64,000 nt of DNA from an uncultured Rikenellaceae bacterium. Its GTDB lineage: Bacteria > Bacteroidota > Bacteroidia > Bacteroidales > VadinHA17. Where the stretch lies: NCBI GenBank assembly GCA_964466705.1, contig CAYXSM010000014.1, positions 28,028 to 92,027 of the forward strand, in the 5' to 3' direction. The notes below the pieces were generated by a model. It was given only the letters and a program-made list of their open reading frames with translations, was not told the DNA's origin and did no database searches. The position numbers and the translations under genes are program-made. Below, piece by piece: positions 3,548-63,122 of the stretch (its first letter is position 1; every line of letters begins with the position of its first letter).

Positions 3548-5140
3548 ATGTGGATATTTTTAATATTCAAACCTGTTTTTTTCAGCGCCTTAAGTACAGA
3601 AATTTACTTATCGGCCGCAGCAGTCCCGATTATTGCAATATGTTTATTTGTCTGCGAATTGCGTGATTCGGGAAAGGGTATGGGAATTCGGGCGAGCCAT
3701 AAATTCTTACTGCCGGTGATTTTTCTGGTTATTCCGGCCGGAATCGGGATCCGGGAGTCATATTCAGTGATGCAGGAAAGCTGTTCAAAGGACGAAGAAC
3801 CGAACCGTCCGGCAGGTGTACCCGTAGGAATAAATCCTGGCAGGGTTGTCTGGGTCTGGAATCCCGATGCTACAAATGAGAACTGCAGATCCACTTTTGA
3901 CGCACAGGACTGGTACTGGAAACCTGAAAACACAGATAAAAAGGTTGTGGGAACCATGTTCCGCGAGGCTATTATGAAACTGACCGGCGAATCATCAGTA
4001 TCTGCATCATGGGATCAGCTTTTTCGTTCTTTTAATTCAGGAAAATCGGGAGATAACTGTGGCTATAAAAAAGGTGAAAAGATCTTTATTAAGATCAATC
4101 AGAGCCAGTCAAGATGGCTGTTGAACCAGGAAGAAAAGAAAAAAGGATACTATCTGCCTCAGGATCTAAAACCCAGGGAACAAAGACGAAGATTGAATTT
4201 GATACCTGTAGAGACAGGACCGGCTATTGTTCTCGAACTTCTGCAGGAACTTGTAAACGACTTAGGTATAGAACAGTCAGATATTGCTATAGGGGACCCG
4301 ATAGCTCATATTTACGGGCACAATTATGATGTATGGGTCAGGGAATTTCCGGATGTTATTTATACTGACAGAACCTCTTCGATGCATGGCAGAACGTTGA
4401 TCAGGACAACGGATGAAGACCGTATCTATTTTTCAAATTCCTGTCTTTCGGATAAGACTTATGATATTGTTGAAGAGGCTGATTATATAATAAACCTGGC
4501 TAATCTCAGGACTCACGGGGCTGCAATAATTTCACTGACGGCCAAGAATCATTTCGGGAGCATCACCTCTCCTACATCAAAGCTTCTTCATCATACACAT
4601 CTTCTTAAAGGAGAAGAAAGATCAACATATGAAGGCTACTTTCAGTATCGCGCCCTTGTAGATCTGATGGGTAGCAGATATCTGGGGCAAAATACCATGC
4701 TAAACATAGTTGAAGCGTTATTTGGCGGCGGATCGGATGAAACAAAGGTACCTGTCAAATATTTTATGGCACCATTTAACAATGACTGGTGTAATTCCAT
4801 ATTTCTTTCACAGGATCAGGTTGCAATTGAATCGGTCTGCTATGATTTTCTCAGGGCGGAGTGGAATGGAATCCATAAGCATGATCCTTTAAATAATGAA
4901 TGGGAAATTATTCCGGACAGAGACGGGATTGATGATTATCTTCATCAGGCTGCAGATCCTTCAAACTGGCCTGAAAATATAATTTACGACCCGGATAAAA
5001 GCGGCAAACCTGTTACGAGCCTGGGTGTTCATGAGCACTGGAACGATCCGGTAAGGAGGCAATATTCGCGAAACCTTGGGAAATCAACTGGAATTGAGCT
5101 TGTTTCTATACCTGACAGTCTGGTGTTAGAGGGGGGTTAA
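3548..5140 (+). CDS. DUF362-domain protein (start codon uncertain)
   Basis: 530-aa ORF. GEKIFIKINQ and EADYIINLANLRTHGAAIISLTAKNHFGS resemble the DUF362 core. Hydrophobic N-terminus; alternative start at M45. Confidence 0.65.
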   Translation: MWIFLIFKPVFFSALSTEIYLSAAAVPIIAICLFVCELRDSGKGMGIRASHKFLLPVIFLVIPAGIGIRESYSVMQESCSKDEEPNRPAGVPVGINPGRVVWVWNPDATNENCRSTFDAQDWYWKPENTDKKVVGTMFREAIMKLTGESSVSASWDQLFRSFNSGKSGDNCGYKKGEKIFIKINQSQSRWLLNQEEKKKGYYLPQDLKPREQRRRLNLIPVETGPAIVLELLQELVNDLGIEQSDIAIGDPIAHIYGHNYDVWVREFPDVIYTDRTSSMHGRTLIRTTDEDRIYFSNSCLSDKTYDIVEEADYIINLANLRTHGAAIISLTAKNHFGSITSPTSKLLHHTHLLKGEERSTYEGYFQYRALVDLMGSRYLGQNTMLNIVEALFGGGSDETKVPVKYFMAPFNNDWCNSIFLSQDQVAIESVCYDFLRAEWNGIHKHDPLNNEWEIIPDRDGIDDYLHQAADPSNWPENIIYDPDKSGKPVTSLGVHEHWNDPVRRQYSRNLGKSTGIELVSIPDSLVLEGG

Positions 5141-5223: not shown

Positions 5224-6108
5224 TTAAAGTTCAAGAGGCCTTTCGTGTTTTATGAATGTCCTGTTATCCAGGTCCCTGAAAGCTTCGTTCAGCTCTTCCT
5301 CGGTATTCATTACAATCGGGCCGCCCCATGCAACAGGTTCCTGAAGCGGTCTGGCAGCCAGAAGCAGGAACCTCGCCCCTTCAGGCCCTGCCATTACCCT
5401 TACCTCATCAAATTCCGAACTGTTCCCTGACGAAGCTTTAAGAAGCATTGCACAGGCTTTATCCTCAAATTCAGACAGAGTTTCATCTGCAGCCAGTGTT
5501 CCCTCGATGAGATACAGGAACATAGTCTGATCATTGGGAGTCTCATTATACTTCCAGACACTGCCGGGTTGCAGATCAACATCCAGGTACTGGACTTTAA
5601 CGTATTCGCCCCTGACTGCTCCCGTCTTTGTCGCGTATCTGCCCGAGAGGACTCTCACAGTTGCGTCCTTCTCGCTGATAACGGAAACATCCTGCTGTCT
5701 GATATCACGATATGCAGGTTGTGTCATCTTATCCTTTTTTGGAAGATTGACCCAGATCTGACAGCCCAGCATCCTTTCGGAAGCCATAGGCATTTCCTGG
5801 TGAATAATGCCCGATCCGGCAGTCATCCACTGACACTGAAGGTCCCTGATGACCCCCTTGTTTCCCAGGCTGTCGCCATGTTCAATCTCTCCCTTCAGCA
5901 GATAGGTCACCGTTTCTATTCCACGGTGAGGATGCCAGGGGAACCCCTTTATATAATCGCGGGGATCTGATGAATCAAAGCCATCCAGCATCAGGAAAGG
6001 GTCAAAGTCCTTTATTGTCCTGTATCCCAGGACCCTGCGCAGACGAACACCGGCTCCGTCAACGGCATGCTGCCCCCTTACTGCATGTTCTAATTTCCTG
6101 AAAGCCAT
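5224..6108 (-). CDS. Pirin family protein
   Basis: 294 aa. PWHPHRGIETVTYLLKGEIEHGDSLGN and SGIIHQE are classic pirin bicupin motifs. Confidence 0.9.
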   Translation of the reverse strand: MAFRKLEHAVRGQHAVDGAGVRLRRVLGYRTIKDFDPFLMLDGFDSSDPRDYIKGFPWHPHRGIETVTYLLKGEIEHGDSLGNKGVIRDLQCQWMTAGSGIIHQEMPMASERMLGCQIWVNLPKKDKMTQPAYRDIRQQDVSVISEKDATVRVLSGRYATKTGAVRGEYVKVQYLDVDLQPGSVWKYNETPNDQTMFLYLIEGTLAADETLSEFEDKACAMLLKASSGNSSEFDEVRVMAGPEGARFLLLAARPLQEPVAWGGPIVMNTEEELNEAFRDLDNRTFIKHERPLEL

Positions 6109-6391
6109 ATTCCCTTTATTTTCATTGAAGAAACTTCCATAATTGATTTCAGATTCAAACCCGTAACGAATATACTATAAAAATAAATGCTGTTTCGCTG
6201 TCGGAGGGAAAAGATCCTCAGCTTGAAAGAGCAGTAGAGGAAGCCCTTAAGCTTCCTGAGCAGCAGGAGGAGATCAAAACAGAACCCCCGGCTTACTCCA
6301 CTCCGGCAAAACGGTTTCGGAAAGCTATCAGGAGAAAAAAAATTGACTTTGGCGTTGCGTTGTGGTAAATTTAATATCAATAATATTTACC

Positions 6392-6799
6392 ATGAAACCA
6401 AAAAATGCCCAACTGAACCGGATCAGATGGATTGCCCGCATTACAGGCACCCTTCTGGCTGTTTTCATCCTCATCTTTGTATCGTTAAGCATTGTTGGTG
6501 AGGTAAAAGAAACTGGCTGCACTTACAGTCTGGCACAGATTCTGACGTTTATTTTCTGGGGAATTGCAATGCTAGGACTGCTGCTTGCACTCTGGAAAGA
6601 GGGACCTGGAGGAATAATCTCCCTGTCAGGACTTGCCATAATGTATATTGCCGGCTTATTTGAGCCCGAAGCCAATAAGAAGGCGATGCTTTGGGTTGTA
6701 ATAATACTGGCAATACCTTCATTTTTATATGTCTGTTACTGGATGGGAAATAAAAGAAGCCAGTCTAAAAAAAATGATCAGAGTTCACAGAGGCGATAG
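6392..6799 (+). CDS. Small integral membrane protein, unknown function
   Basis: The track ORF starts at GTG 6362; the first ATG at 6392 gives MKPKNAQLNRIRW. About 4 hydrophobic helices and a basic C-terminal tail. Confidence 0.6.
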   Translation: MKPKNAQLNRIRWIARITGTLLAVFILIFVSLSIVGEVKETGCTYSLAQILTFIFWGIAMLGLLLALWKEGPGGIISLSGLAIMYIAGLFEPEANKKAMLWVVIILAIPSFLYVCYWMGNKRSQSKKNDQSSQRR

Positions 6800-7277: not shown

Positions 7278-8744
7278 ATGGAAAAAACTCATAAAAACAG
7301 TAAAGTAAAGTTTTTCAACGAACAGGATATACCTCTTGAAATGCATAAGGTAAGGGTTGTCCAGAAACTAAATCTCCTGCCGATTGAGGAGAGGAAGAAA
7401 GCGATGGAAGAAGCAGGATTCAACACCTTCCTGTTGCAGAACAAGGATGTATTCCTCGATATGCTTACAGACAGTGGCACCAATGCCATGAGCGACAATC
7501 AGGTGGCGGCAATGATGGTAGCGGATGACTCTTATGCAGGTTCTTTCAGCTATTCAAAGCTTGAAAAAGCAATAAAAGACGTATTCAACCAGAAATATTT
7601 TCTGCCTGTTCACCAGGGAAGGGCTGCCGAACATATCATTTCACAGGTATTCATTCCAAAAGGGAACATTGTCGTGACAAACTATCATTTCACAACAACA
7701 AAAGCTCATATAGAGCTTGTTGGAGGCGTGGTTTATGAAGCATACCGCGATGAAGCCCTGAATATAAAGAGCGATCATCCTTTCAAAGGCAATATAGATA
7801 CTGATAAGCTCGAAGCTGTCATAAAGCAGTATGGTGCGGAAAAAATTGCATTCATCCGTTTTGAAGCCGGTACAAACCTGATCGGGGGACAACCGTTTTC
7901 AATGCAGAACATGAAAGATGTATGGCAGATATCCCGGAAACATGGAATAAAAGTCCTTATGGATACCAGTCTTATCAACGAGAATCTCTATTTCATCAAG
8001 ACCAGGGAGAAGGGGTATGAAAACCTCACGATAAAAGAGATATTGCATGAAATGATGAGTTATACCGATTTTTCGTATTTCTCCGGGCGTAAGGTAAGCT
8101 GTACGAGGGGAGGCGGTATCTGTACCAACGACAGGGAGATATATATGAAAATGAGAGATCTGGTTCCCTTGTTTGAGGGATTTCTTACATACGGTGGCAT
8201 GAGTGTCCGTGAGATCGAAGCAATGGCTGTCGGGCTGTATGAGACTCTTGATATGGATGTTATAAGTCAGTCACCCGGGTTCATCAAATATGCTGTTGAT
8301 TCATTCGTGGAAAAAGGCGTGCCTGTGGTAACTCCTGCCGGGGGCTTGGGATGCCATCTCGATGCAAGGGGTTTTATACCGCATGTTCCCCAGAGTGAAT
8401 ATCCGGCAGGCGCACTGGCAGCAGCACTTTATATAGCCTCCGGTGTAAGAGGAATGGAACGCGGAAGCATTTCAAGCGTCAGAGACGAAAATGGAAATGA
8501 TATCCCGGCGGATGTTGAGCTGCTTCGTCTGGCATTTCCAAGAAGGGTATTCACCCTGTCGCAGGTCAAGTATATGGAAGACAGGGTAAACTGGCTGTAT
8601 GAGAACAGGAACCTTATAGGAGGACTGGAATGGATCGAGGAACCTCCCGTGCTAAGATTCTTTGTGGGAAAACTTAAAGCCAAGACAAACTGGCCGGATA
8701 AGTTGGCAGAGAAATTCAGGAACGACTTCGGAGATTCACTGTAA
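7278..8744 (+). CDS. Beta-eliminating lyase, tryptophanase / tyrosine phenol-lyase family (PLP)
   Basis: 488 aa. FLDMLTDSGTNAMSDNQVAAMMVADDSYAGS, HQGRAAEHI, GGQPFS and the FSGRK (PLP-Lys region) align by eye with E. coli TnaA. I cannot tell Trp from Tyr specificity. Confidence 0.85.
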   Translation: MEKTHKNSKVKFFNEQDIPLEMHKVRVVQKLNLLPIEERKKAMEEAGFNTFLLQNKDVFLDMLTDSGTNAMSDNQVAAMMVADDSYAGSFSYSKLEKAIKDVFNQKYFLPVHQGRAAEHIISQVFIPKGNIVVTNYHFTTTKAHIELVGGVVYEAYRDEALNIKSDHPFKGNIDTDKLEAVIKQYGAEKIAFIRFEAGTNLIGGQPFSMQNMKDVWQISRKHGIKVLMDTSLINENLYFIKTREKGYENLTIKEILHEMMSYTDFSYFSGRKVSCTRGGGICTNDREIYMKMRDLVPLFEGFLTYGGMSVREIEAMAVGLYETLDMDVISQSPGFIKYAVDSFVEKGVPVVTPAGGLGCHLDARGFIPHVPQSEYPAGALAAALYIASGVRGMERGSISSVRDENGNDIPADVELLRLAFPRRVFTLSQVKYMEDRVNWLYENRNLIGGLEWIEEPPVLRFFVGKLKAKTNWPDKLAEKFRNDFGDSL

Positions 8745-8766: not shown

Positions 8767-8874
8767 GTGTAAAAGCCGGTAAGGCAAACCACTTTCAGCC
8801 GGACATGCGGTTAAAGATTAAGCCATATGATACCAGGTATTTACAATATGCAGGAGGCGGTAAATCAATTCCGG
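8767..8874 (+). repeat. Intergenic repeat, family B copy K
   Basis: GTGTAAAAGCCGG..ACCACTTTCAGCCGGAC..TATTTACA..TAAATCAATTCCGG aligns with copies at 43609, 24402, 20221 and 35437. Starts 23 nt after the lyase stop. Confidence 0.6.
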
Positions 8875-8884
8875 TTTAAGATGA

Positions 8885-10063
8885 TCATTGTCCCGGCTTT
8901 TGCACCTCTGAATCATATTCCCCAAGGTTCAGCGGATATTTTCCATACTCCCTTACGATCTTAACAATGTAGTCATACGTCTTGCCGGCAACACCGCCTG
9001 AGACTGAGTGGTCGGACTGGAAAATATAGCCTCCTCCCTTTGCAGCATTGAGCTTTCTGAGTGTTTCACGTTTTATCAGATCAAGGTCATTTGTCTCCCA
9101 CACCAGTATGTCATTGTTTCCGCAATAACCCATTCTGTTCCCAAACACCTTCTTCAGGTTTATGGCATCCATGCCCGCCTTGACCTCAAGCGGATTATAG
9201 GCATCAAGTCCCATAATGGCAAAGTCGTCAAGAATTGCGTTAACATTTCCGCATCCGTGATAAATTACGGGAAGTCCGTTTTCATGGCAAATATCAATCA
9301 TTTTTTTTACCCATGGCCGGAAGTATTTACGCCAGTAATCAGGATCGAACAGCAAAGAATGTTTATAGGCCACGTCCCCCCAGATTACAAAACCATCAAG
9401 AAGTCCGTCGGCTGCCTTTATTTGTGCTCTGGCGGAATCGGCATAGAACCGGCCGATCCTGTTGATGACATCACCAAGTCTTTCAGGATACATTCCTATC
9501 CAGAACAGAAAATTTTCCTGACCGACAAGGCGGGTGAGACATTCGGAACATTCAATAATACTTCCGTAAACAGGGAAATCCGGTCTTAGCTTATTGACTG
9601 TTACTATCCAGGGAGGTGAATTGCGTACAAATCCGTCCCCGACACCTGCAATCTGATTGTCACCTGCTGAAAAAAACCTTCTCGGATCGGCAGGATCATC
9701 AAATACGAGTCCTTCAAGTTTTTCTATTGTGTCAATTTCAAAAGACAACCATTCAGGCATTGGTGAGTCAAACTTTTTTCTGATGGTAGCAAGGAAACCA
9801 GTTTTAATTATCACTTCTTCACTGTTCTCGCGGAGAGTTTCGAATGGTCTGATAAAAGGATCCATATTGGGGGTAGTAACTATCCAGTCAAGATCATAAT
9901 AATAATACGGGTCAGCATCAGCCGGGAGTCCTAACTCATTTCGCCATCTGTCAGTAAAGCTTCCCCAGAAGAAATCACTGATTGGAACCCTGTCAGGTTC
10001 CTGGTGATGCAATGCTTTATTCATCCGTTCAAGCTTGGCAAGACAGGTTGTTGTACGTTCCAT
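8885..10063 (-). CDS. Uroporphyrinogen-decarboxylase (URO-D) family protein
   Basis: 392 aa. LPVIYHGCGNVNAILDDFAIMGLDAYNPLE and YIFQSDHSV are typical of URO-D/MtaA-like TIM barrels. Confidence 0.75.
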   Translation of the reverse strand: MERTTTCLAKLERMNKALHHQEPDRVPISDFFWGSFTDRWRNELGLPADADPYYYYDLDWIVTTPNMDPFIRPFETLRENSEEVIIKTGFLATIRKKFDSPMPEWLSFEIDTIEKLEGLVFDDPADPRRFFSAGDNQIAGVGDGFVRNSPPWIVTVNKLRPDFPVYGSIIECSECLTRLVGQENFLFWIGMYPERLGDVINRIGRFYADSARAQIKAADGLLDGFVIWGDVAYKHSLLFDPDYWRKYFRPWVKKMIDICHENGLPVIYHGCGNVNAILDDFAIMGLDAYNPLEVKAGMDAINLKKVFGNRMGYCGNNDILVWETNDLDLIKRETLRKLNAAKGGGYIFQSDHSVSGGVAGKTYDYIVKIVREYGKYPLNLGEYDSEVQKPGQ

Positions 10064-11442: not shown

Positions 11443-11458
11443 TATCAGAGTGCAAAAA

Positions 11459-11476
11459 TCGGTGATCCTGACCAGC
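11459..11476 (+). repeat. Intergenic repeat, family A left arm only (copy F)
   Basis: TCGGTGATCCTGACCAGC, 17 nt after the AKR stop and preceded by GTGCAAAAA as in other copies. The rest is replaced by the tandem hairpin units. Confidence 0.5.
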
Positions 11477-11483
11477 TCCAACA

Positions 11484-11630
11484 GGTCTTCTCCTTCCCCG
11501 CAGGGGATAAACCCTACCGCGTAGCGGTTACACTACTGTATGAGAAGGAGTACACGGGTCTTCCCTTCCCCGCAGGGGATGAACATACAACCCTGCCGCC
11601 TGGCGGTTAACTGTACTGCAAAAGCCGGCA
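11484..11630 (+). repeat. Two tandem ~72-bp units, each with two GC hairpins
   Basis: Unit 1 starts at 11484 and unit 2 at 11557. Shared sequence: GGTCTTC..CTTCCCCGCAGGGGAT(A/G)AAC and CCCT(A/G)CCGC.T.GCGGTTA..TACTG. Hairpins are CCCC-GCA-GGGG and CCGC-NTN-GCGG. Confidence 0.8.
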
Positions 11631-11761
11631 GGGCTTACCGTCTTTAGACGGTCATATATTCAATAAAAGATATCACGCCAAACATACAACCGCCCGAAAA
11701 GAGTCAATGTTTCAACTTATTTCTTAATTTGGTCCTTCAAACTTCAGAATGATCCGTACCA

Positions 11762-13153
11762 ATGATCCAACAGCGAAGTCTTGCAAGAACACTCGGACTG
11801 GGTTATGTAATAATCTTTGTCTTTGCAAATATCATTGGTTCAGGAGTGTACAAGAAGATTGCACCCATGGCTGCCGGGCTCCAATCATCCACATGGATAC
11901 TGATTGCATGGACAGCAGCCGGCGCAATCACACTTTTCGGTGCCCTGAGCAATGCCGAGCTGGCCGGTATGCTGGCTGACACCGGCGGGGAGTACGTCTA
12001 TCTTAAAAAAGTCTACAACCGATTCTTTTCCTTTCTCTATGGCTGGTCCCTGTTTACGGTAATACAGTCGGCCACCATATCATCGCTGGCATATGTCTTT
12101 GTTCAGTCGCTGAAAAGTATCCTGCCTTTGCCTGATTTATTTTCATCATTGCAGGATATTACTATCGGGGGTGTCTTCTTCCCTTTCCATGATTTCGGGA
12201 TCAAGCTTACTGCAATATTGATTATAATGGCGCTGACATTTCTCAACATGTCGGGACTGAAGAGCGGGGCCCGGGTTAACAAAGCCCTGTTCTTCATTGT
12301 CTGTGCAGGTCTGGCGGTGATTATTGCATTTGGACTGTTCAACGTATCCCGCGGCCATACAGAAATCTTTGACCTCAGGAGCCTGAAGGGAGGGTCTGTT
12401 AATGTCTCTTCATTCATGACAGCTATGCTGGCAGCTTTCTGGGCATACCAGGGATGGGTCTCGACAGGCTTCATAGGAGGAGAAATAAAAGATGCACGGC
12501 GTAATATTCCCAAAGGAATCATCATTGGTGTTTTTGCAATAACAATAATCTATCTGCTGGTCAACTATTCCTACCTGGCAGTCATGTCGATCCCTGACCT
12601 GGTGAGTGTGCATGAAGCAGGCAATCAGGTTGCCGCCATTGAGATGGTAAGAAGCCTCCGTATAGAAGGAGGCGTACTTTTCATATCATCGCTTATACTG
12701 GTATCGACCCTGGGTTGCCTTAATGCAAGTATTCTGACAGGCTCCAGACCCTATTATGCAATGTCGCGGGAGGGGCTTTTCTTTTCAGGCATCGGGAAGC
12801 TCAATAATCACAATGTGCCTGGCAACTCCCTGCTGTGGCAGGGAATATGGGCATCTGTACTTGTGTTGTCAGGCAACTTTGACCAATTGACCGACATGCT
12901 CATCTTTGCCGTTTACATATTCTACGGAGCCGCGGCCACGGGAGTTTTCATACTGCGCCGCAGGATGCCGGATGCGCACCGGCCGTACAAAACCTGGGGC
13001 TACCCGGTCGTAACGGCAATATTTGTGCTTTTCTGTGCCGGATTGTTCATAAATACCATCATAACGAGGCCCCGGGAAGCCCTGATAGGTCTTTCCCTTA
13101 TCATGGCAGGCATACCGGTCTATTTTCTGTTCCGCAAGAGGCACAAGCTGTAA
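11762..13153 (+). CDS. APC-family amino acid permease
   Basis: 463 aa with about 12 TM segments. N-terminal LGLGYVIIFVFANIIGSGVYKK is typical of the APC superfamily. Confidence 0.85.
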   Translation: MIQQRSLARTLGLGYVIIFVFANIIGSGVYKKIAPMAAGLQSSTWILIAWTAAGAITLFGALSNAELAGMLADTGGEYVYLKKVYNRFFSFLYGWSLFTVIQSATISSLAYVFVQSLKSILPLPDLFSSLQDITIGGVFFPFHDFGIKLTAILIIMALTFLNMSGLKSGARVNKALFFIVCAGLAVIIAFGLFNVSRGHTEIFDLRSLKGGSVNVSSFMTAMLAAFWAYQGWVSTGFIGGEIKDARRNIPKGIIIGVFAITIIYLLVNYSYLAVMSIPDLVSVHEAGNQVAAIEMVRSLRIEGGVLFISSLILVSTLGCLNASILTGSRPYYAMSREGLFFSGIGKLNNHNVPGNSLLWQGIWASVLVLSGNFDQLTDMLIFAVYIFYGAAATGVFILRRRMPDAHRPYKTWGYPVVTAIFVLFCAGLFINTIITRPREALIGLSLIMAGIPVYFLFRKRHKL

Positions 13154-13156
13154 AAT

Positions 13157-13281
13157 GCCGGTGATCCCGACCAACTTTCGCAAGAATAAGCTGATCTTCT
13201 AAAAACGAAGATAAATACATGATCTACAGGTAAATAATAAAGGGTTAATCTTCCCGGCGAAATGTGGTCAAGGGAGCCGGC
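13157..13281 (+). repeat. Intergenic palindromic repeat, family A copy G
   Basis: Left arm GCCGGTGATCCCGACCAAC and right arm GAAATGTGGTCAAGGGAGCCGGC. Starts 4 nt after the permease stop. Its right arm supplies the ATG of track ORF 13262. Confidence 0.75.
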
Positions 13282-13753
13282 ATATTCAGGTATTGGTTCT
13301 GTTCCGGAATATCATTATCATGTTGCAGGCAATGCGAACCTTCCACCTGAGGAAGAATCCCACAGGGCAGAAGCAGCCATGGATGTGGTGTTAGTGCGGA
13401 GTTATATCATGAACGGCACAATAAATGTTCGCTTTACATTTTCAAATGAAAAAAGCATGGTGGGCGGTCATTCTGAGAGCGTGAACAAGGATTTTACATT
13501 TTTTAGTATGACAGCAGGGATCCTGCCCGATGATCCTGATATGAAATGTCCGGACAATTACAGGTTATTGGAGAGCCTGGAGTAATCCTTCGTGACAAAA
13601 TAGAATATTGCTGTTTATTTACAGGATTTTTCATGGGGACCGCCCGGAGATTTGATGCATAAATTTCTTAATTTGGGCAGGAAATTTTTTCCGGTATCCT
13701 GAATTAAATTGTCTTTGGTCTTTTTCATTTATAATCCGGCCTGATTTAAATTA

Positions 13754-17552: not shown

Positions 17553-17840
17553 AGCTGTTAGAATTATTTTTTCCGGTACGGACATACATCTGCCAGAACG
17601 GAGAAATTTATAATTGATCAATATGTTGAAGAACGATATCCTCACTTTTTTCTCATTGAAAGCGGGCTTGCACCATTAAATAAAGTTACGCCGGAAATAT
17701 GTGAAATTCAAAATTTTTTCTCCGTAATAATGTGCTTATAATGACCGGAATTTCCCAACATTATGCCTATGTGGATTAAATTCCATAAATTTATTGGGGA
17801 AATCAAATTTTTTGAAAGAACGAAAAACAGAATAAGAGCC

Positions 17841-18692
17841 ATGAGAGCTATCAGCAACAGATTTATCATCGCTGTTTTTTCACTTGGAATGTTCATTTCA
17901 GGATTAACAGCTGTTAATGCACAAACACCGGGCACAACTCCTGACGATTGTCTGATCACTCTGTGGAATCACCAGAGGAATATAGATCCGACCCATGTTG
18001 TTCAGGAGCTTGGATTTAACCTTATATGGTCACACGACAGAGCTTATGAAGGTCAGGCCTGGGAAGAAACCCACATGTACAAAATGCTTCAGGTACCTGG
18101 TGTTAAATACGTTTTTGCCAAGATTGAAAGGGCAGCCTGGGGATGGACTCATGAACAATCTTTGAAACATGCACGCTGGGTGGCACAGCTATCTCTCGAT
18201 CACCCGGGCATTCTGGGGATGTACCTGAATGACTTCTATGATGAAATCGAGGACGGGCACCGTACTGAAGAACAATGGAGAGAGATCATCGCAGCAGCAA
18301 AAGGGATTAATCCGAAACTTCAACTTTGGGTTCCCGATTACCCGCACCGCAACCAGGGCCGGCACGCTTTTGATTTTGATATCGATGGTGTGATAATGAG
18401 CCTGTGGGGGAACACTCCCGAACTTATGGCACGAGCCAGGGAGCACCTTACAGCCGGACTGGAGAAACACCCTGACAAACCCCTTATAGCAGGACTTTAC
18501 CTTAGATCTGGTCCGGACGGAGGACGCTGGCTCTCAGAAGATGAATTTAAATCTGTTCTCGGATTCTATGTCGAAATGGTAAATGCCGGGAAATTTGCAG
18601 GATTAAGGATCTTTTCTGCAGGACAATTGGAAGAGCGGCCGGAGTATATCGGCTGGGCAAAAGAAATACTTTCAGGATTAAAATGCCGGTAA
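17841..18692 (+). CDS. Secreted hypothetical protein (possibly TIM-barrel glycosidase-like)
   Basis: Start moved to M27 (MRAISNRFIIAVFSLGMFISGLTAVNAQ signal). No motif that I recognise. Confidence 0.6.
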   Translation: MRAISNRFIIAVFSLGMFISGLTAVNAQTPGTTPDDCLITLWNHQRNIDPTHVVQELGFNLIWSHDRAYEGQAWEETHMYKMLQVPGVKYVFAKIERAAWGWTHEQSLKHARWVAQLSLDHPGILGMYLNDFYDEIEDGHRTEEQWREIIAAAKGINPKLQLWVPDYPHRNQGRHAFDFDIDGVIMSLWGNTPELMARAREHLTAGLEKHPDKPLIAGLYLRSGPDGGRWLSEDEFKSVLGFYVEMVNAGKFAGLRIFSAGQLEERPEYIGWAKEILSGLKCR

Positions 18693-18798
18693 TTACGACA
18701 ATTATTTAATCCACACATGAATCAGAGTTACAAAAATGAGCCCCGTTTTATGTATTTCAATGCATAATATAGTTTGCGCGATGTTGGTAATTGCAGAA

Positions 18799-18920
18799 GG
18801 CGGTGACCCGGACAATCTCCCGCCGTCATAACTGCTAACTTTAAGCCATAGTTAATCTTATGAGCTAGAGATTTAAAAAAGACGTAAATCTTTCCGGCAG
18901 AATGCGGACAGGGCGACCCG
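18799..18920 (+). repeat. Intergenic palindromic repeat, family A copy E
   Basis: GGCGGTGACCCGGACAATC..TTATGAGCTAGAGATTTAAAAAAG..CCGGCAGAATGCGGACAGGGCGACCCG aligns along its whole length with copy 62771-62899. Confidence 0.7.
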
Positions 18921-18991
18921 AAGATGCAGATTGCGACCAGTGCTGAGGATTTTGTTGTGAACTTAATATATTGATAAAAAAATTCCTGCTA

Positions 18992-20220: not shown

Positions 20221-20375
20221 ATGCCTGACCAACTTAACGGATAAGATAAACATGCGGGTTACCTGTCTGCCGGATGGCAGGCATGTGACCATTTAAAAAT
20301 TATTTACATAATAACAGTTATTTACAACTGGTTGAAGATGGTAAATAAAGTCCGGAGTGACGTGGTCAATATCAC
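20221..20375 (+). repeat. Intergenic repeat, family B copy H
   Basis: ATTATTTACATAATAACAGTTATTTACAACTGGTTGAAGATGGTAAA..AGTCCGGAGTGACGTGGTCAA. Starts 15 nt after the GH99-like stop. Confidence 0.7.
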
Positions 20376-20565
20376 AGGTTTTTGTAAGTACAGAAAGGAG
20401 CAGTGCAGATCAAACCAAAAATTTTCGGGTCAGTCGGTTTTCCTGACAGGAGAAAACCTATCTTTAAAAATGAATTCATAGATCCAATTTTTGCTGACTT
20501 TAGCTTCGGTTTGATTTCTTGCGATTCTTAAGATATTGCAATTAAAGGTGTGTTTTTTCCAAATT

Positions 20566-23202: not shown

Positions 23203-24028
23203 TAATTTGATTTAATCTGAAATAGTTACTTTCGATACTGTATGCCGGGGCTGGTATATAGAACAATTGGTAATTAAAAAAGTTTATTGCACGAAGAGGC
23301 AGAAAATCTGGTCACGCTGAACACTTTATTCCGGACCAGCTGTAAGAACCTGATGCGCTGATGATATTCAGACGGTTAGAAATTAAAGTTATAATCTGAA
23401 TAACATGAGTTCGATATAAGAAAATTACATACAACATTGATTGTTAATAAAATAACACTATATTGACAGTATTTATATGATATATAATCAATTGCAAAAA
23501 AGATTCTTTCCAAATCTGTTGTGCAGGTCTGACAAATACAGACAGAATCTGTAGAAACCGCAGACCCGGATCATCTCTTGCCGTTTTAAACTGTAAATTC
23601 CGCAATATTGAACACCTTTTTCCAGTTTATAATGAACAGTTAATCAATACTTATATTTGATTTCTTTTTACGCATTGATATTATGATGTTTACCAGCCGG
23701 GGTCAATTGTTTTGCCAAATCCGGAATCACAATGATAAATGAACACCGGTATCAGGTGCTCAGTTTGAGCGGATTTTCCGGAAAGGGAGCCTGTAAAGGT
23801 AAAAATCCGCCTTTCTCTGGTTACTTCAGAAGAAGATCTGAAAGCTTTTATTTTATATGTGGAAACAACAGTAGTTAACTCTGGATCCGGGTGGTCATAT
23901 ATATCTGGCTGGTTATGGAAATGATCGGTGACAGACTCAATATTCTCATCAATTTACTTGACTTTCAATATTTAATGGCATACCTTAGGTTTAGTTTTTC
24001 ATATAAACTTAAACTGGGAGGTCATATT

Positions 24029-24406
24029 ATGAAAATTAGCACTTTCCTGATTATTAAATCCGTTGTCTGTATCGTTTTTGGCATTGGATTTGTCGTTTTA
24101 CCGGCTTTGACAGGTTCCGTTTATGAAATCACACCCGACCCTGATGGATTAATCATGACAAGGTTTTTTGGTGCAGCCTTTCTGGGAATAGGCCTTATTC
24201 TCTGGTTTTGCAAAGATGCCGACTGGAAAACACTTAAAGGTATTACACTCTCCTTGCTTATTGCCGACATTATTGGTTTTATTGTAGCGCTTTCTGGTCA
24301 GTTGTCTGGCAACATTAATGCCCTGGGATGGATCAATGTAGCACTCTGGCTCTTTTTCGTCTTAGGTTTAGGGTATTTTCGTTTCCTGAAACCAGACAAG
24401 GCCTGA
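24029..24406 (+). CDS. Small 4-TM membrane protein
   Basis: Start moved to ATG 24029 (MKISTFLIIKSVVCIVFGIGF), preceded by GGAGG. The 23891 GTG extension is AT-rich and non-coding-looking. Confidence 0.6.
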   Translation: MKISTFLIIKSVVCIVFGIGFVVLPALTGSVYEITPDPDGLIMTRFFGAAFLGIGLILWFCKDADWKTLKGITLSLLIADIIGFIVALSGQLSGNINALGWINVALWLFFVLGLGYFRFLKPDKA

Positions 24407-24525
24407 CTGCAAAGGCAGTGCTGGCCGGGCACATCTGGCCGGTCAAATGTTCAAAAAATAATTTACACAATAACAGATATTTACAGCTGGCTGAAGATGG
24501 CCAATCAATTCTGCCGTGAAGTGAT
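24402..24525 (+). repeat. Intergenic repeat, family B copy I
   Basis: Overlaps the stop of the preceding gene. AATAATTTACACAATAACAGATATTTACAGCTGGCTGAAGATGGCCAA..CTGCCGTGAAGTGAT. Confidence 0.7.
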
Positions 24526-24644
24526 TTATGTCATTGTCATATGCAACTGATGTATTATTATCATTTAAAACCGGAATTAATCAACATAATTGTTCAGATA
24601 ACAATACCACGGATAATGTCATGTAAAAAAGGAAGGGGGATATT

Positions 24645-29081: not shown

Positions 29082-29197
29082 CACGGTGATGACACCTGGG
29101 CAAAGGCGTTTAATCCCAATATCAAATTTACCAGGACTAAAACCTTAATGGAAGGGCATGACTGTTGTGATCATTGTTACAGAATATGACCTGCCCT
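29082..29197 (+). repeat. Intergenic repeat, family A, degenerate copy N
   Basis: CACGGTGATGACACCTGGG..CAGAATATGACCTGCCCTG. Starts 30 nt after the amidohydrolase stop. Arms diverged. Confidence 0.4.
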
Positions 29198-29501: not shown

Positions 29502-29738
29502 CCAATACCATACAGCCGCTTGCGCGGCTTATTGATGCAACAGAATAATACTTGTATGTATCACAGTTTTCCAGTGCAAAAATGACTTCAGCCTGAATAT
29601 GGTGTGAATTTGATATTGGCCTTGATCCGGTCTTGCTTAATGCTGTAAAAAATTGGATTAAACAAGACTGGCCATTTAAGAGAGTTACCTATCCCGGAAT
29701 AGATATCAGCTGGACAGAATGGGAATTATTGGAGTAAT

Positions 29739-30986: not shown

Positions 30987-31226
30987 GGCAATTTTCTTTC
31001 AAAAATACTAAATTAAATAATACTGGACAATAATTCCATAAATATACGATATTATTGGATTCTGATTCCATAATTCCGCACATAATAAGAATTTGTCAAC
31101 TCCCTTTTAAAAAGTTTTGTGCAGATCAGGCTGGATCCTCTTTCTATTTTGTCTTAATCCCATAATTTGTTGAAATACAGCATTTCATTATTTTTATATG
31201 ATCACTTAAAAATCCGTGCTAAATAA

Positions 31227-31257
31227 TTGACTTCAGCCTGAATATGGGGTAAATTTG
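31227..31257 (+). promoter_or_regulatory. Bacteroidota-type promoter (conserved module) for the 31301 gene
   Basis: TTG (31227-31229), 20 nt, then TAAATTTG (31250-31257). Lies 43 nt upstream of the ATG. Confidence 0.6.
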
Positions 31258-31300
31258 ATATAGTAATCATTAAAAATAAGTTAACCATCTTATCTGCGAA

Positions 31301-36936: not shown

Positions 36937-37073
36937 GGCAGTTAATTTTTATAGATTGAACAAATATATGGTTTGATTTTCGAAAAGCTGAATTTACCCC
37001 GTACAAAACTGCTCCGGATAGCTATTCAGTGGCTTAGATTTATTTGACTTCGGTCTTCCGAAGGTGTTGAAAA

Positions 37074-37202
37074 TCCGATGAGTCTGACACCAATCACCGG
37101 TAAAAATTGACCAGTCAAAGCAGGAGTTAATATCATGAGCTATGGATTAACAATATTAAAAAATTAATCTTTCCGTCATAATATGGTCACGTCAACCGGC
37201 TT
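37074..37202 (+). repeat. Intergenic palindromic repeat, family A copy C
   Basis: TCCGATGAGTCTGACACCAATCACCGGTAAAAATTGACCAG..ATCATGAGCTATGG..CCGTCATAATATGGTCACGTCAACCGGCTT. Confidence 0.75.
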
Positions 37203-37242
37203 ATGAACGTCATTTTCAATGCCACTTTATACGTTATTGGTT

Positions 37243-39169: not shown

Positions 39170-39287
39170 TCAAAGTATAATCTGATTCTGTAATGTATAT
39201 TCGAGTGTCTTATTCTGTTTATTAAGATTTTAAAACACGGAAATTCAGAATTTGTCCCCGGAATTTAAGCTCTGAAAGAGCGAACAC

Positions 39288-39317
39288 ATGAATAACCCCC
39301 GGCGCACCAGCCGGGGG
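39288..39317. repeat. REP hairpin, left
   Basis: ATGAATAA-CCCCCGGC-GCACCA-GCCGGGGG, preceded by hairpin GCTCT-GAA-AGAGC (39269-39281). Confidence 0.8.
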
Positions 39318-39384
39318 TAGAGCATCCAAAAACCTGACAGCTCTGAAGAGCCTGTCCCGCTCTGCGGGAAGCGTAATGTGATTA

Positions 39385-39831
39385 TCAGGGGAAGTATCGG
39401 TTATCGATCTCAATGCCTGCCTCTTCAATCAATCTTCTGTACTCATCCTCGAATGACTCCTTGCTATGATGGATCTGCTGATTTTTTATATACGCTATCA
39501 GCCTTTCCAGGTCTCCAAATGAACAGGTGAGACTGGCATATCCCTCTGCCCATCCCTCAAAACCGGGAAATAATCCGCATTTCTTGATCCAGAGTGAGGA
39601 ATAGACCTTTATATCTTTTACAAAATCAGCAGGGGCTATTGAAGGATGTATATCGGTGAGAATATGGATATGATTTTGTACACCGTTGATCCTGTAAAGG
39701 AAACTGTTTTTATTTTTAATAATACCGGTTATGTATGCAAAAAGCTCATCTGAATATTCCTGTTTAATAGCAGGAAGATTATTCTTGGTCCTCGTTACAA
39801 TGTGGTAAAGATGCTGGCGATAACTTGACAT
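39385..39831 (-). CDS. IS200/IS605-family Y1 (HUH) transposase / REP-associated tyrosine transposase
   Basis: Start moved to M25 (MSSYRQHLYHIVTRTKNNLP). HUH motif NHIHIL. Catalytic-Tyr helix LIAYIKNQ. About 149 aa. Confidence 0.85.
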   Translation of the reverse strand: MSSYRQHLYHIVTRTKNNLPAIKQEYSDELFAYITGIIKNKNSFLYRINGVQNHIHILTDIHPSIAPADFVKDIKVYSSLWIKKCGLFPGFEGWAEGYASLTCSFGDLERLIAYIKNQQIHHSKESFEDEYRRLIEEAGIEIDNRYFP

Positions 39832-39943
39832 TAGCACGGATTTTAAGGGTAATACAGCAAGATTTATACTAAGGTAGCAAACAATAACCAATAAATAACA
39901 CATATTACGCCCTTTCAGGGCTTAAGAACAGCTAGCCTTCTGC

Positions 39944-39971
39944 CCCCCGGCTGGCGCCGGGGGTTATTCAT
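39944..39971. repeat. REP hairpin, right (inverted copy)
   Basis: CCCCCGGC-TGGC-GCCGGGGG-TTATTCAT is the reverse complement of the left REP except for a 2-nt loop indel. Followed by hairpin GCCAC-ATTC-GTGGC (39977-39990). Confidence 0.8.
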
Positions 39972-40972: not shown

Positions 40973-41051
40973 TTTTCTTTAACACAGAAACAGTTTATAG
41001 TGAAAAGTTAACAATAATTTAGCAATTGATCAATTTTACAAAAGTAGGCAA

Positions 41052-41170
41052 CTCTAACCTCCACTCACCGGTAAAAATTGATCAGTTAAAGCCGGACTTA
41101 ATATAATGAGCGATAGATAAATATTAAAAAGTAAATCTTTCGGGAATAATGTGGTCAGGGCAGCCGGCTT
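41052..41170 (+). repeat. Intergenic palindromic repeat, family A copy B
   Basis: ..CCACTCACCGGTAAAAATTGATCAGTTAAAGCCGGACTTAATATAATGAGCGATAGATAAATATTAAAAAG..CGGGAATAATGTGGTCAGGGCAGCCGGCTT. Confidence 0.75.
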
Positions 41171-41460
41171 ATTTGATTATAGGTGTAATTAATACATTAT
41201 CAAAGGCATATATGATTTTGCCAAAGACAATTCTTTACCATTTTGTGAAAAGGCAACCGAACTTAAAAGTCTGTACACGAAAGGTTTTAATGCCATGATT
41301 TACGAATAAGTGTCTCAGATTTATTTGATTTCGGCTTTTATAAGGTGTAACTTACATAAATACAGTTAGCACTTTGAAGCTTAAATAAATTATAAAAACT
41401 AATTTCTGGAAAATAACCTAAATTGCAAGTGAACATGCAAAACAATATTAATTGAGGTCA

Positions 41461-42267
41461 ATGAATACATTTAAGCATTCCATTATTCTGATAATAGCAG
41501 GCTGCACCCTGAACTGTTATTCGCAACAGGATGGTTTTTCGTGGCCTGGTGGTGCAAAAGCCGCTGTTTGCCTGACATATGACGACGGAATTGATTCACA
41601 GTTGAATATTGCAATCCCTGACCTTGAAAAAGAACATCTCAGAGGGACTTTCTATATTGAAGGTCGTAATCTGACCCCGGAGAGAATAGGAAGGTGGAAA
41701 GAGGTGGCCGGAAATGGTCATGAACTGGGGAATCACACAATATTTCATCCCTGCTCGGAGAAACTGAATTTCATAAGAAAAGAATTCGCAAGCGAGAATT
41801 ATACAGTAAACAGATTTCTGAAAGAATTGGCAGTCATGAACAACTTTCTTTATGCTGTTGACGGTAAAAAATCGAGATCATTTGCCTACACCTGTGGTGA
41901 AACAATCTACGGAGGAATATCAGTTATTGATACCCTGAGGGCATCCGGGCTGTTTCCGGGTATCAGGGGCGGATCACCGGAGGTTGTAAGGGATATGAGG
42001 ACATTGGATTTATTTAACATCCCAAGCTTTGTATCATTGGATGAAACTGCTGACAAGATGATACCTTATGTTGAAGAGGCCGGGAAAGTCGGGGGGATGG
42101 CTGTTTTCATGTTTCATGGTGTCGGTGGCGATTACCTGAGCATATCACGGGAGGCTCACTATAAGCTTCTCAGTTATTTGAACAAGAACAGGAAAGATTA
42201 CTGGACGGCGCCTTTCCTTGAAGTCGTGGAACACATTATTGCCGAACGAAAAAGGCTAGGATGGTAG
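41461..42267 (+). CDS. Polysaccharide deacetylase (CE4-like), secreted
   Basis: ATG at 41461 (MNTFKHSIILIIAGCTLNCYS). CLTYDDG and GNHTIFHP motifs. Confidence 0.8.
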   Translation: MNTFKHSIILIIAGCTLNCYSQQDGFSWPGGAKAAVCLTYDDGIDSQLNIAIPDLEKEHLRGTFYIEGRNLTPERIGRWKEVAGNGHELGNHTIFHPCSEKLNFIRKEFASENYTVNRFLKELAVMNNFLYAVDGKKSRSFAYTCGETIYGGISVIDTLRASGLFPGIRGGSPEVVRDMRTLDLFNIPSFVSLDETADKMIPYVEEAGKVGGMAVFMFHGVGGDYLSISREAHYKLLSYLNKNRKDYWTAPFLEVVEHIIAERKRLGW

Positions 42268-42294: not shown

Positions 42295-42394
42295 CCGGTC
42301 AGTGCGGGCAACGGAGACCGGAGCACATCTCTTGAGGGATAGATAAATATAAAAATGTTAATCTGGCCGGCGGAATATGGTCAGGGTAACAGGC
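42295..42394 (+). repeat. Intergenic repeat, family A right half (copy D)
   Basis: ..GGGATAGATAAATATAAAAATGTTAATCTGGCCGGCGGAATATGGTCAGGGTAACAGGCT. Starts 28 nt after the CE4 stop. It seeds track ORF 42355. Confidence 0.65.
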
Positions 42395-42682
42395 TCATGC
42401 ACTTTGCGGACGGTGGTTCCCGGAAACCAGATACCAGCCTTACTACAAGCTATACCTCGAAATGTATCCCGAAGGACGGAAGGAGGATCATTTTAAGGCA
42501 GAAATATGCGTTCCTGTTAATACCTTATGAAACTTAAAAGACCGGGCCATTTGGTCCGGGCTATTCGGGTTCAGGCATTTTATTTCAATACGCTATCCGC
42601 ACTAGGTTAAAGTTTTAAAATTTAAGTGAGTAAACAGAGCCGGATCGAATAAACTCTTATACTTTTATGAAAACGATTTATC

Positions 42683-43608: not shown

Positions 43609-43727
43609 GTGCAAAAGCTGAACATGCGGACCACTTTCGGCCGGTCTGTTGTTCAAAGAAATAATTTCGATAATAACAGCTATTTACAGCTGGCAGAAAA
43701 TGGTCAGCCAAGTCGGGCGTTAAGTAG
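43609..43727 (+). repeat. Intergenic repeat, family B copy J
   Basis: GTGCAAAAGCTGAACATGCGGACCACTTTCGGCCGGTC..AATAATTTCGATAATAACAGCTATTTACAGCTGGCAGAAAATGGTCAGCCAAGTCGGGCGTTAAGTAG. Starts 9 nt after the stop. Confidence 0.7.
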
Positions 43728-43899
43728 TCTTTGCCTCTGGCTCAAAAGATCCGGAATGTTTTTGTCTTCCTGATTTCATAATTCACTGGTTTAGAGTTAT
43801 TAAATTTAAACCTGATCAGTGGTCTTAATTAAGGGTAGTATTACATGATATTGTTGAAATACTGGCACTAAAAAGGCACCGGTTTATTTAACAGGTTTG

Positions 43900-52877: not shown

Positions 52878-52941
52878 AATTACTGTTGGAAAATCAGGTA
52901 ACGGGTTTTCAGTAATTCCAATGTGATTGACTATTGCATGA

Positions 52942-53063
52942 GCCGGTGACCCTGACTACTCCCGGCCGGAGTTAATTGACCACCTCCCGGCGGTTGTATG
53001 TATCTGTCATGTAGCTTATATTTTAAACTCCAGACCGGCTGAAGTGGTCAATACTTCCGGCTT
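52942..53063 (+). repeat. Intergenic palindromic repeat, family A copy L
   Basis: GCCGGTGACCCTGACTACTCCCGGCCGGAGTTAATTGACCAC..CCGGCTGAAGTGGTCAATACTTCCGGCTT. Starts 65 nt after the phosphatase stop. Confidence 0.7.
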
Positions 53064-53273
53064 CTGCATTTCATCACCAAAGAGCTTTTATTAAGTATCT
53101 GATAAAATTGTAACTTTACTTACGGCCCTGATAATCTTTGTTATTTAAAGTATTTGTGGTTCAATGCTAAATAACATAATACCAATATTTAAACCACACT
53201 TATTAACAAAACAACATAACACAAAGAAAATCAATCGGTTGAAATTTATATCTTGTACTATGATTTTGTAGTT

Positions 53274-62683: not shown

Positions 62684-62770
62684 TTTGTGATCTTTTAAGT
62701 TAAAATTACTAATTGAATGAATATTAAAAAGAAAAAGACCTTCTGATATTCAATTGTTAATTCAGTGCGA

Positions 62771-62899
62771 AAGCCGGTGATCCTGACCACCTCACGCCGG
62801 TAAAAATTGACCACTTAAAGCCTGACTTAATATCATGAGCTAAAGATAAATATAAAAATGTTGATTTTTCCGGTAGAATGTGGTCAGGGCAACCGGCTT
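62771..62899 (+). repeat. Intergenic palindromic repeat, family A, best-preserved copy (A)
   Basis: AAGCCGGTGATCCTGACCAC..CCGGTAAAAATTGACCAC..AT-rich centre..GTTGATTTTTCCGG..GTGGTCAGGGCAACCGGCTT. The outer and inner arms are reverse complements. Confidence 0.85.
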
Positions 62900-63050
62900 C
62901 TGTGCCCAATGACAAAAAATCCATGGACAAAATCATTTTTAACCTGGTAAAGACATAGAATGTGCAAAATCATGTGCTCAGAATCTTACTCATTTTACAG
63001 TTTTGTCCTTAATCCTGAAAGCCCCTTATCAAAGAATTAACTTCGGCACC

Positions 63051-63064
63051 AGGTGGTCAGGATC
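63051..63064 (-). repeat. Family A left-arm fragment in inverted orientation (copy M)
   Basis: AGGTGGTCAGGATC is the reverse complement of GATCCTGACCACCT. Lies about 60 nt downstream of the minus-strand DUF5916 stop. Confidence 0.45.
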
Positions 63065-63122
63065 TCAGACTTCTCCGGGGATGACCACGACAGAAATAGA
63101 ATATAAAGATGACCATTTGATC

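Follow-up and report, generated by a model that had tools for sequence, protein, structure and literature searches.

A lineage-restricted, probably MITE-like family of palindromic repeats between the genes of an uncultured Rikenellaceae bacterium

We analyzed a family of palindromic repeats in 64 kb of DNA from an uncultured Rikenellaceae bacterium. We refer to this whole stretch of 64,000 nucleotides, numbered from its first letter, as the window. Our main finding is that the repeats, which comprise family A and a set of B-type relatives, are probably a non-autonomous family of mobile elements of the MITE class that is decaying and restricted to one lineage (we put the probability of this reading at roughly 0.6). 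The window contains 10 full copies and 4 fragments, every one of them intergenic, and the family occupies approximately 2.5% of its length. In all, we examined approximately 20 copies drawn from approximately 250 kb of sequence. A preliminary description of the repeats had offered two interpretations: (i) an RNA-level role as a 3' hairpin, terminator or stabilizer, and (ii) a strongly targeted MITE. The family is partly confirmed as it was first described, and the interpretation placed on it is partly supported.

The existence of a repeat family was borne out in two ways. The 20-nt outer arm, AAGCCGGTGATCCTGACCAC, has six matches in the 64-kb window at three or fewer mismatches, against 0 expected from shuffles. 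One of these six is the arm's own partner on the opposite strand (62880-62899), complementary at 17 of 20 positions, as anticipated by the claim that the outer arms of the best copy are reverse complements. We then used an nhmmer profile built from the six copies that had been called alignable end to end, and it recovered all six on the plus strand, beginning at 62771, 13155, 18797, 37072, 41042 and 52940 (E-values from 1e-37 to 4e-25). A right half, a lone left arm and an inverted arm fragment, all reported previously, were also recovered by the profile. A supposed degenerate copy at 29082-29197 aligned poorly and had no profile match even at E = 10; it is not a copy. Weaker nhmmer matches on the minus strand identified four full-length, diverged relatives, the B-type copies, which constitute a repeat family in their own right (D3), and the copy at 52935-53068 is an intermediate that joins them to family A. 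The original list of copies had not linked the four minus-strand relatives to the family, and it lacked a partial minus-strand copy at 11616-11710. The length first given, approximately 125 bp, was too short: about 5 nt must be added at either end, and the true unit measures 134-141 bp (typically ~139 bp). The copies in the window are as follows.

62766-62904, plus strand: 139-bp A-type copy, the best preserved of its type, located 83 nt upstream of the minus-strand acyl-CoA ligase gene
13150-13288, plus strand: A-type copy whose left tip, TGTAAAA, gives the permease its stop codon (13151-13153)
18792-18928, plus strand: A-type copy with decayed arms (fold z = -0.7), 100 nt past the stop of the plus-strand gene 17769-18692
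37067-37207, plus strand: A-type copy with decayed arms (z = -0.7), flanked by minus-strand genes on both sides and 131 nt upstream of where the GH18 gene starts
41037-41175, plus strand: A-type copy with a decayed left arm (z = -0.1), in the divergent gap between the SDR (minus) and CE4 (plus) genes
52935-53068, plus strand: intermediate subtype with a B-like core, 58 nt past the stop of the TPR-SpoIIE/PP2C gene
42328-42403, plus strand: right half only (profile positions 69-144), past the CE4 gene stop at 42267
11450-11509, plus strand: left-arm fragment, 8 nt past the aldo-keto reductase stop
11616-11710, minus strand: partial copy (profile positions 42-143, E = 5e-5), in the same gap as the fragment 11450-11509
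63035-63075, minus strand: left-half remnant, 48 nt past the stop of the minus-strand DUF5916 gene
8768-8904, minus strand: B-type copy in a convergent gap, overlapping the stop of a URO-D-like gene (8885-10063, minus strand)
20247-20386, minus strand: B-type copy, 41 nt past the stop of a plus-strand WbsX-like gene
24408-24545, minus strand: B-type copy, 2 nt past the stop of the plus-strand gene 23891-24406
43610-43748, minus strand: B-type copy, 10 nt past the stop of a plus-strand nitroreductase-ferredoxin gene

A second repeat (D6/D14) is found on the plus strand of the window at 6341-6377, 29580-29616, 31225-31261, 37028-37067 and 41309-41359. Its ending, TAAATTTGATAT, agrees with the -7 promoter box of Bacteroidetes (TAnnTTTG), and three of its copies stand 15-93 nt upstream of the starts of plus-strand genes. 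The copy at 37028-37067 ends exactly where the element at 37067-37207 begins, as if split by that element.

Each unit of the main family runs from TGCA to TGCA, with tips TGCAAAAGCCGG ... CCGGCTTWTGCA that start with TG and end with CA. The consensus carries terminal inverted repeats, TGCAAAAGCCGGTGAYCCTGACCAC ... GTGGTCAGGGnnACCGGCTTWTGCA. An arm consists of two direct modules, GCCGG-N6-TGACCAC, each 18-19 nt long and approximately 24 nt apart, and these are mirrored in the opposite arm around an AT-rich core. It is because this two-module layout is mirrored between the arms that the unit appears as a nested palindrome. Within the A-type subfamily, arms, spacers and core are all 64-75% identical and hence have decayed equally; between subfamilies, identity is 55-70% in the arms and 38-43% in the cores. 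The repeat unit is non-coding, with stops in most frames. We also took the reverse frame of the element, which is mostly open, and compared its translation with 5.8 billion proteins in search of spurious ORFs; this yielded a single match at E = 0.06 and nothing real. The predicted ORFs at 13262 and 42355, attributed to the repeat from the outset, do both start at an ATG inside the right arm, and the family seeds such spurious ORFs from the ATG in AATGTGGTCA.

Two signal-like motifs were observed inside the unit. The A-type consensus contains a rightward sigma-70-like pair, TTGACC-N18-TATCAT, at 37107-37136, at 41078-41107 and at the same place in 62766-62904; it is probably irrelevant, as the primary sigma consensus of Bacteroidetes is different. 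The B-type core contains a small hairpin, CAGCTGTAAATAGCTG TTATTAT, with a T-rich tail (43677-43692 on the minus strand, and at the same place in the other B-type copies). This hairpin lies on the strand opposite the upstream genes and is therefore unable to terminate them.

We examined the distribution of the family in relatives and in sequence databases. The named homologues of the window proteins are all labeled "MAG: Bacteroidales bacterium", and the proteins also occur in ENA metagenome contigs. The family is present in the close relatives represented by loci L025 (permease 90% identical), L026 (acyl-CoA ligase 93% identical) and L027/L028 (94%). Relatives at 80-88% protein identity contained no copy in approximately 165 kb of partly redundant loci, orthologous sites included. 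To search more widely, we used an arm-independent core pattern, TTAATNTNATGAGCNANNGAT N20-45 AATRYGG, which matches four of seven window copies. This pattern found no genuine copy among 185,579 GTDB species genomes; its two matches there, in an alphaproteobacterium and a SAR324 MAG, had no profile match and were rejected as chance. In JGI metagenomes it matched six loci, three of them real (L007, L008 and L011) and three by chance. L007 and L008 are the same locus, differing by two indels; the genome that L011 comes from is much richer in AT, and the three copies there have flanks that bear no relation to the window. The copies of this AT-rich organism (L007, L008, L011) are 83-86% identical to the family. 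Nothing was found in viral contigs with two patterns, by BLAST against plasmids and phages, or by searching for the arm sequences as literal strings in the searchable literature. Contigs that extend the window by 7.8 kb to the left and 1.8 kb to the right, reached through exact protein matches, contained no further copies.

Comparison of orthologous loci suggests how these copies arose and what became of them. Mobility is inferred here from presence and absence between lineages and not from a clean pair of empty and filled sites. The site upstream of the acyl-CoA ligase gene is occupied by a full unit in the window and in L026 and by a 25-nt solo arm (L027 4592-4628), fused behind a peptidase M19 gene, in L027/L028; L029/L030 have nothing there. 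Orthologous sites without the element were found in L012-L018, L029 and L030. The permease gene at 11762-13153 encodes 463 aa, compared with 467-471 aa in its homologues (4-8 aa shorter), the homologue tails are unrelated, and its TAA stop lies inside the tip TGTAAAA of copy 13150. The sister contig L025 shares this insertion, at an identical permease codon, with approximately 60 nt of the core deleted and the tip read as ...LHKSQ followed by a stop. The site behind the DUF5916 gene holds a full copy in L027, a left-half remnant in the window and, in L026, another subtype with its start 20 nt earlier. At the site that follows the FAD oxidoreductase gene, the flanks diverge after approximately 35 nt in all three genomes compared. 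No target-site duplication is visible at 14 copies, which are 65-85% identical, an age at which a short (2-4-bp) duplication would be mostly erased. The insertions are younger than the separation from relatives at 88% identity or less and older than the divergence among the closest relatives. These are old copies, already in place before the window's species parted from relatives with 7-9% coding divergence, and they have been eroded by internal deletions and solo-arm rearrangements.

Several observations connect the elements with rearrangement. The window and L026 align at 91% nucleotide identity up to the outer border of an element (62904 in the window, 9777 in L026) and exactly there cease to be homologous, a synteny break of the kind expected from recombination between dispersed copies. 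The genes around the acyl-CoA ligase operon are arranged differently in the window, L026, L027 and L028, and contig L024 ends inside an element fragment. We considered two further candidate events and rejected both. An inverton (an invertible promoter) was suggested by the recombinase gene in L008 and by the differing orientations behind the DUF5916 gene in L026 and L027, but the L026 copy is a different subtype and a separate insertion, with no flipping of the core. A split of an ancestral permease-CE4 pair by the 28 kb that lie between copies 13150 and 41037 was set aside, as the two CE4 genes are dissimilar and nothing else is syntenic. We also note that L012/L013/L017 and L014/L018 differ in whether the permease is preceded by a block of two genes, one multihaem cytochrome-like and the other for a PQQ beta-propeller, and that L013 has a permease-CE4 spacer of 86 nt, compared with 135 nt in the other loci.

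For the MITE-class reading, we envisage the following course of events. The four modules of a unit would probably be bound by a transposase encoded elsewhere in the genome, which may once have cut-and-pasted or copied the unit in trans. The old copies are now decaying without constraint, internal deletions and rearrangements that leave solo arms are eroding them, and the dispersed copies appear to serve as breakpoints of genome rearrangement.

We next consider where the copies lie relative to genes. Intergenic sequence accounts for 21% of the window, and every window site is intergenic. By approximate gene models, 10 of the 13 window sites fall within 110 nt of a stop codon, compared with 32% of intergenic bases once the elements are removed (p = 0.001), and with the non-orthologous sites in relatives added the count is 13 of 16 (p = 8e-5). 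The preliminary description had placed six of the copies 4-107 nt after the stops of co-oriented genes. Proximity to stops holds at this level of significance, but a co-oriented upstream gene is present for only three of the six full A-type copies, and the proposed orientation bias vanishes when the count takes in the minus-strand relatives and the gene contexts on the minus strand. Behind genes, A-type copies are co-oriented and B-type copies inverted, so that both orientations occur. Copies 37067 and 62766 sit between minus-strand genes, nearer the start of the downstream gene. Divergent promoter gaps are occupied at 41037 in the window and at 15597 in L026, and the L026 orthologue of 62766 also lies in a divergent gap. 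Hence stop-codon proximity is real, and a consistent orientation to transcription is absent. The best explanation for the stop-proximal placement would be that the insertions doing least harm are the ones that survived; a true target preference for gene ends is a possible cause as well.

Position behind ORFs, together with unit size, imperfect dyad symmetry and the single orientation of the window's A-type copies, recalls the attC sites of a sedentary chromosomal integron, such as the 120-130-bp repeats of Vibrio cholerae. We regard this identity as extremely improbable: the RYYYAAC and GTTRRRY core sites are absent from the ends, no integron integrase is found among the window genes scanned, and the related B-type copies are inverted. 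Moreover, distances of 1-20 kb separate the units, and these intervals hold blocks of several genes on both strands and not single promoterless ORFs.

The excess of sites near stops (10 of 13, or 13 of 16 with relatives) also speaks for a functional transcript element, in which a 3' hairpin would terminate or stabilize the upstream mRNA. The intact consensus has an A-tract, a GC-rich stem and a T-tract (AAAAGCCGG...CCGGCTTTT) in the layout of a bidirectional terminator, and the best copies fold strongly. The best copy (62771-62899) forms one long nested hairpin with a folding energy of -47.6 kcal/mol (z = -6.6), in agreement with its first description. Folding was better than in shuffled sequences for three of the six full A copies, and the copies at 18797, 37072 and 41042 gave z between -0.1 and -0.7, such that half of the copies have lost the hairpin. 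RNAalifold on 14 copies gave essentially no consensus structure (-0.45 kcal/mol). For the covariation test, the hairpin of the best copy was imposed on the alignments, and the 3' partners were shuffled between copies as a control. With 14 copies, 68.2% of cells were paired, compared with 67.4 ± 1.0% after shuffling, which is no excess; with 19 copies the values were 66.1% and 64.9 ± 0.9%, and the covariation score was 0.160 compared with 0.151. The pairing of the arms is that expected for two arms drifting independently from a palindromic ancestor.

We compared the rate of change with that of neighboring sequence. Between window copy 62766-62904 and its orthologue in L026, identity is 76% for the element and 74% for the adjacent spacer; for the neighboring gene, it is 85% at third codon positions and 93% over the whole CDS. 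This element diverges at least as fast as neutral sites (third codon positions). One substitution in copy 13150 and its orthologue runs counter to this: a T:A pair has changed to A:T on both sides with the pair kept, which would be an expected product of structural selection or of hairpin-templated repair and would count against unconstrained decay. Terminator scoring in the window rated none of the outer hairpins as a stem plus T-tract (5 or more T in 8). Terminator-like sites occur in the window at chance frequency, and the outer tail of family A reads CTT(A/T)TGCA, with a T run of only 2-4 nt. A search of Rfam returned 0 matches at the gathering threshold in the window, L008, L011 and L025, and at an E-value threshold the same sequences gave only sub-threshold chance matches to plant miRNA hairpins. 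This accords with the earlier impression that the family corresponds to nothing catalogued.

There is thus no sign of selection on the hairpin, and the copies are unconstrained in sequence and in structure. With no covariation or consensus fold, divergence between orthologues at the neutral rate, no outer hairpin resembling a terminator, four sites on the promoter side of genes or in divergent gaps, and both orientations behind genes, we consider the proposed RNA-level role quite improbable. What emerged is the "plain decaying MITE" that the preliminary description had itself set against its RNA idea, except that the stop-proximal placement is real.

A MITE-class family calls for a partner enzyme. 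Among the window genes scanned with Pfam (all but a few of 48 gene models), neither a DDE transposase nor an integrase was identified, and no autonomous element with matching ends was found in the approximately 250 kb examined. The window does encode a RAYT-like Y1_Tnp gene (39385-39903, minus strand), located between two family copies. If this enzyme were the partner, the repeats would be REPIN-like, that is, inverted REP doublets moved as single-stranded DNA by a RAYT (Y1/HUH) with no target duplication. The absence of a visible target-site duplication is consistent with such a system, as is the form of the repeats, which are inverted, hairpin-forming doublets with an extragenic position behind genes. 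These are features shared with the REP/REPIN systems and their RAYTs (GTAG- and CGTC-tagged REPs; PMC3733652). However, the RAYT gene is flanked (39265-39970) by REPs of its own, an inverted, GC-rich palindromic pair, CCCCCGGC..GCCGGGGG, with a GTAG tag; one REP lies at 39294-39320 (AACCCCCGGCGCACCAGCCGGGGGTAG) and its mate at ~39940-39966. These REPs fit the GTAG-tagged class described in PMC3733652, and the GTAG REP has no other copy in the 64-kb window. The family A arms, in contrast, carry neither the defining tag (no conserved GTAG or CGTC) nor a palindrome inside a single arm, which agrees with the original observation that they do not match the REPs of this gene. They also do not occupy a RAYT-flanking position: the nearest family A copies are 1.1 and 2.2 kb from the RAYT gene with genes between, and none abuts it. 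We therefore regard a REPIN-like element moved by a RAYT as unlikely.

One copy outside the window lies close to a recombinase gene. The L008 copy is located between a tRNA gene (4080-4153) and a GIY-YIG endonuclease gene (4199-4507) on one side and a tyrosine recombinase gene (5469-6701) on the other, 344 nt upstream of the latter. L007 corresponds to the L008 locus minus the 390-bp GIY-YIG segment and minus 293 bp that abut the end of the element. Because the two are the same locus apart from these two indels, the copy looks like an element inside an island edge and not like a functional link to the recombinase. ORFs of 155 aa beside the copies in L008 and L011 were considered as a partner gene and rejected, being mutually unrelated and without a Pfam hit. 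In L011, within 9072-9383, the copy L011a (9165-9303) seems to interrupt an ORF whose beginning, at 9072, resembles a signal peptide (MQQKNVKLFAVTLFYVGLTGLNAQ...); past the element, a frame is open again. In the same locus, the stretch at ~7370-7420 has the appearance of the 3' part of a minus-strand tRNA gene (GGGCCCAACTGGGATCGAACCAGTGACC), a candidate that lies inside a gene-poor, AT-rich region of 1.9 kb with two head-to-head copies of the element.

The proximity of the L008 copy to a recombinase gene and a tRNA gene bears on another explanation, namely that the unit is an array of binding sites for a host protein (nucleoid-associated, regulator or recombinase), with functional modules and only incidental hairpin symmetry. 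Such an array would account for the 2+2 arrangement of modules at a regular spacing of approximately 24 nt and for arms that are better kept than cores between subfamilies. Yet within the A type the modules decay like the core, between orthologues they decay like neutral sites, and solo arms and half units persist. The window genes scanned include no recombinase, and the narrow clade would be odd for a site recognized by a host regulator. We judge a host binding-site array to be very improbable.

The module layout, the TG...CA tips and the lack of a visible duplication also allow a more specific proposal. The units could be the ends of an undescribed Bacteroidales transposon or recombinase system that prefers gene 3' ends, sometimes provides the stop codon, and has copies that drive synteny breaks. 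We hold this proposal to be possible, if rather unlikely.

The MITE-class reading can be placed among known systems, to which we compared the family by description. ERIC/IRU elements of enterobacteria are imperfect palindromes of approximately 127 bp that have no known transposase and no obvious target duplication. Family A resembles them in its size class, long imperfect hairpin, intergenic and often gene-distal sites and old copies in related species, as well as in having no known transposase or obvious target duplication. It differs in its sequence, which appears unrelated, its Bacteroidota host, its narrow lineage and its two direct modules per arm. With Correia elements of Neisseria (NEMIS/CREE) and other bacterial MITEs, among them RUP, Nezha and those described from P. 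gingivalis (PMC4596501), it shares a short non-coding unit, terminal inverted repeats of approximately 25 nt, high density, subfamilies that differ in their cores, insertions that can overlap gene ends, and the marking of rearrangement breakpoints. Correia elements duplicate a TA target and carry a defined IHF site; in family A, neither a duplication nor a partner IS is seen. The best-supported verdict is that the family is MITE-like and akin to ERIC and Correia in kind, though not in sequence; its sequence is new, its kind is not.

The family opens no new kind of mechanism, and its significance is genomic. For annotation, besides seeding spurious ORFs, its copies break metagenome contigs (as in L024), shorten at least one real protein and mark places where the genomes of close relatives have been rearranged. 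Few MITE-like families have been described in this phylum, to which a lineage-specific one is now added, and its module architecture could, given complete genomes of the clade, help to trace the transposase that once moved it.
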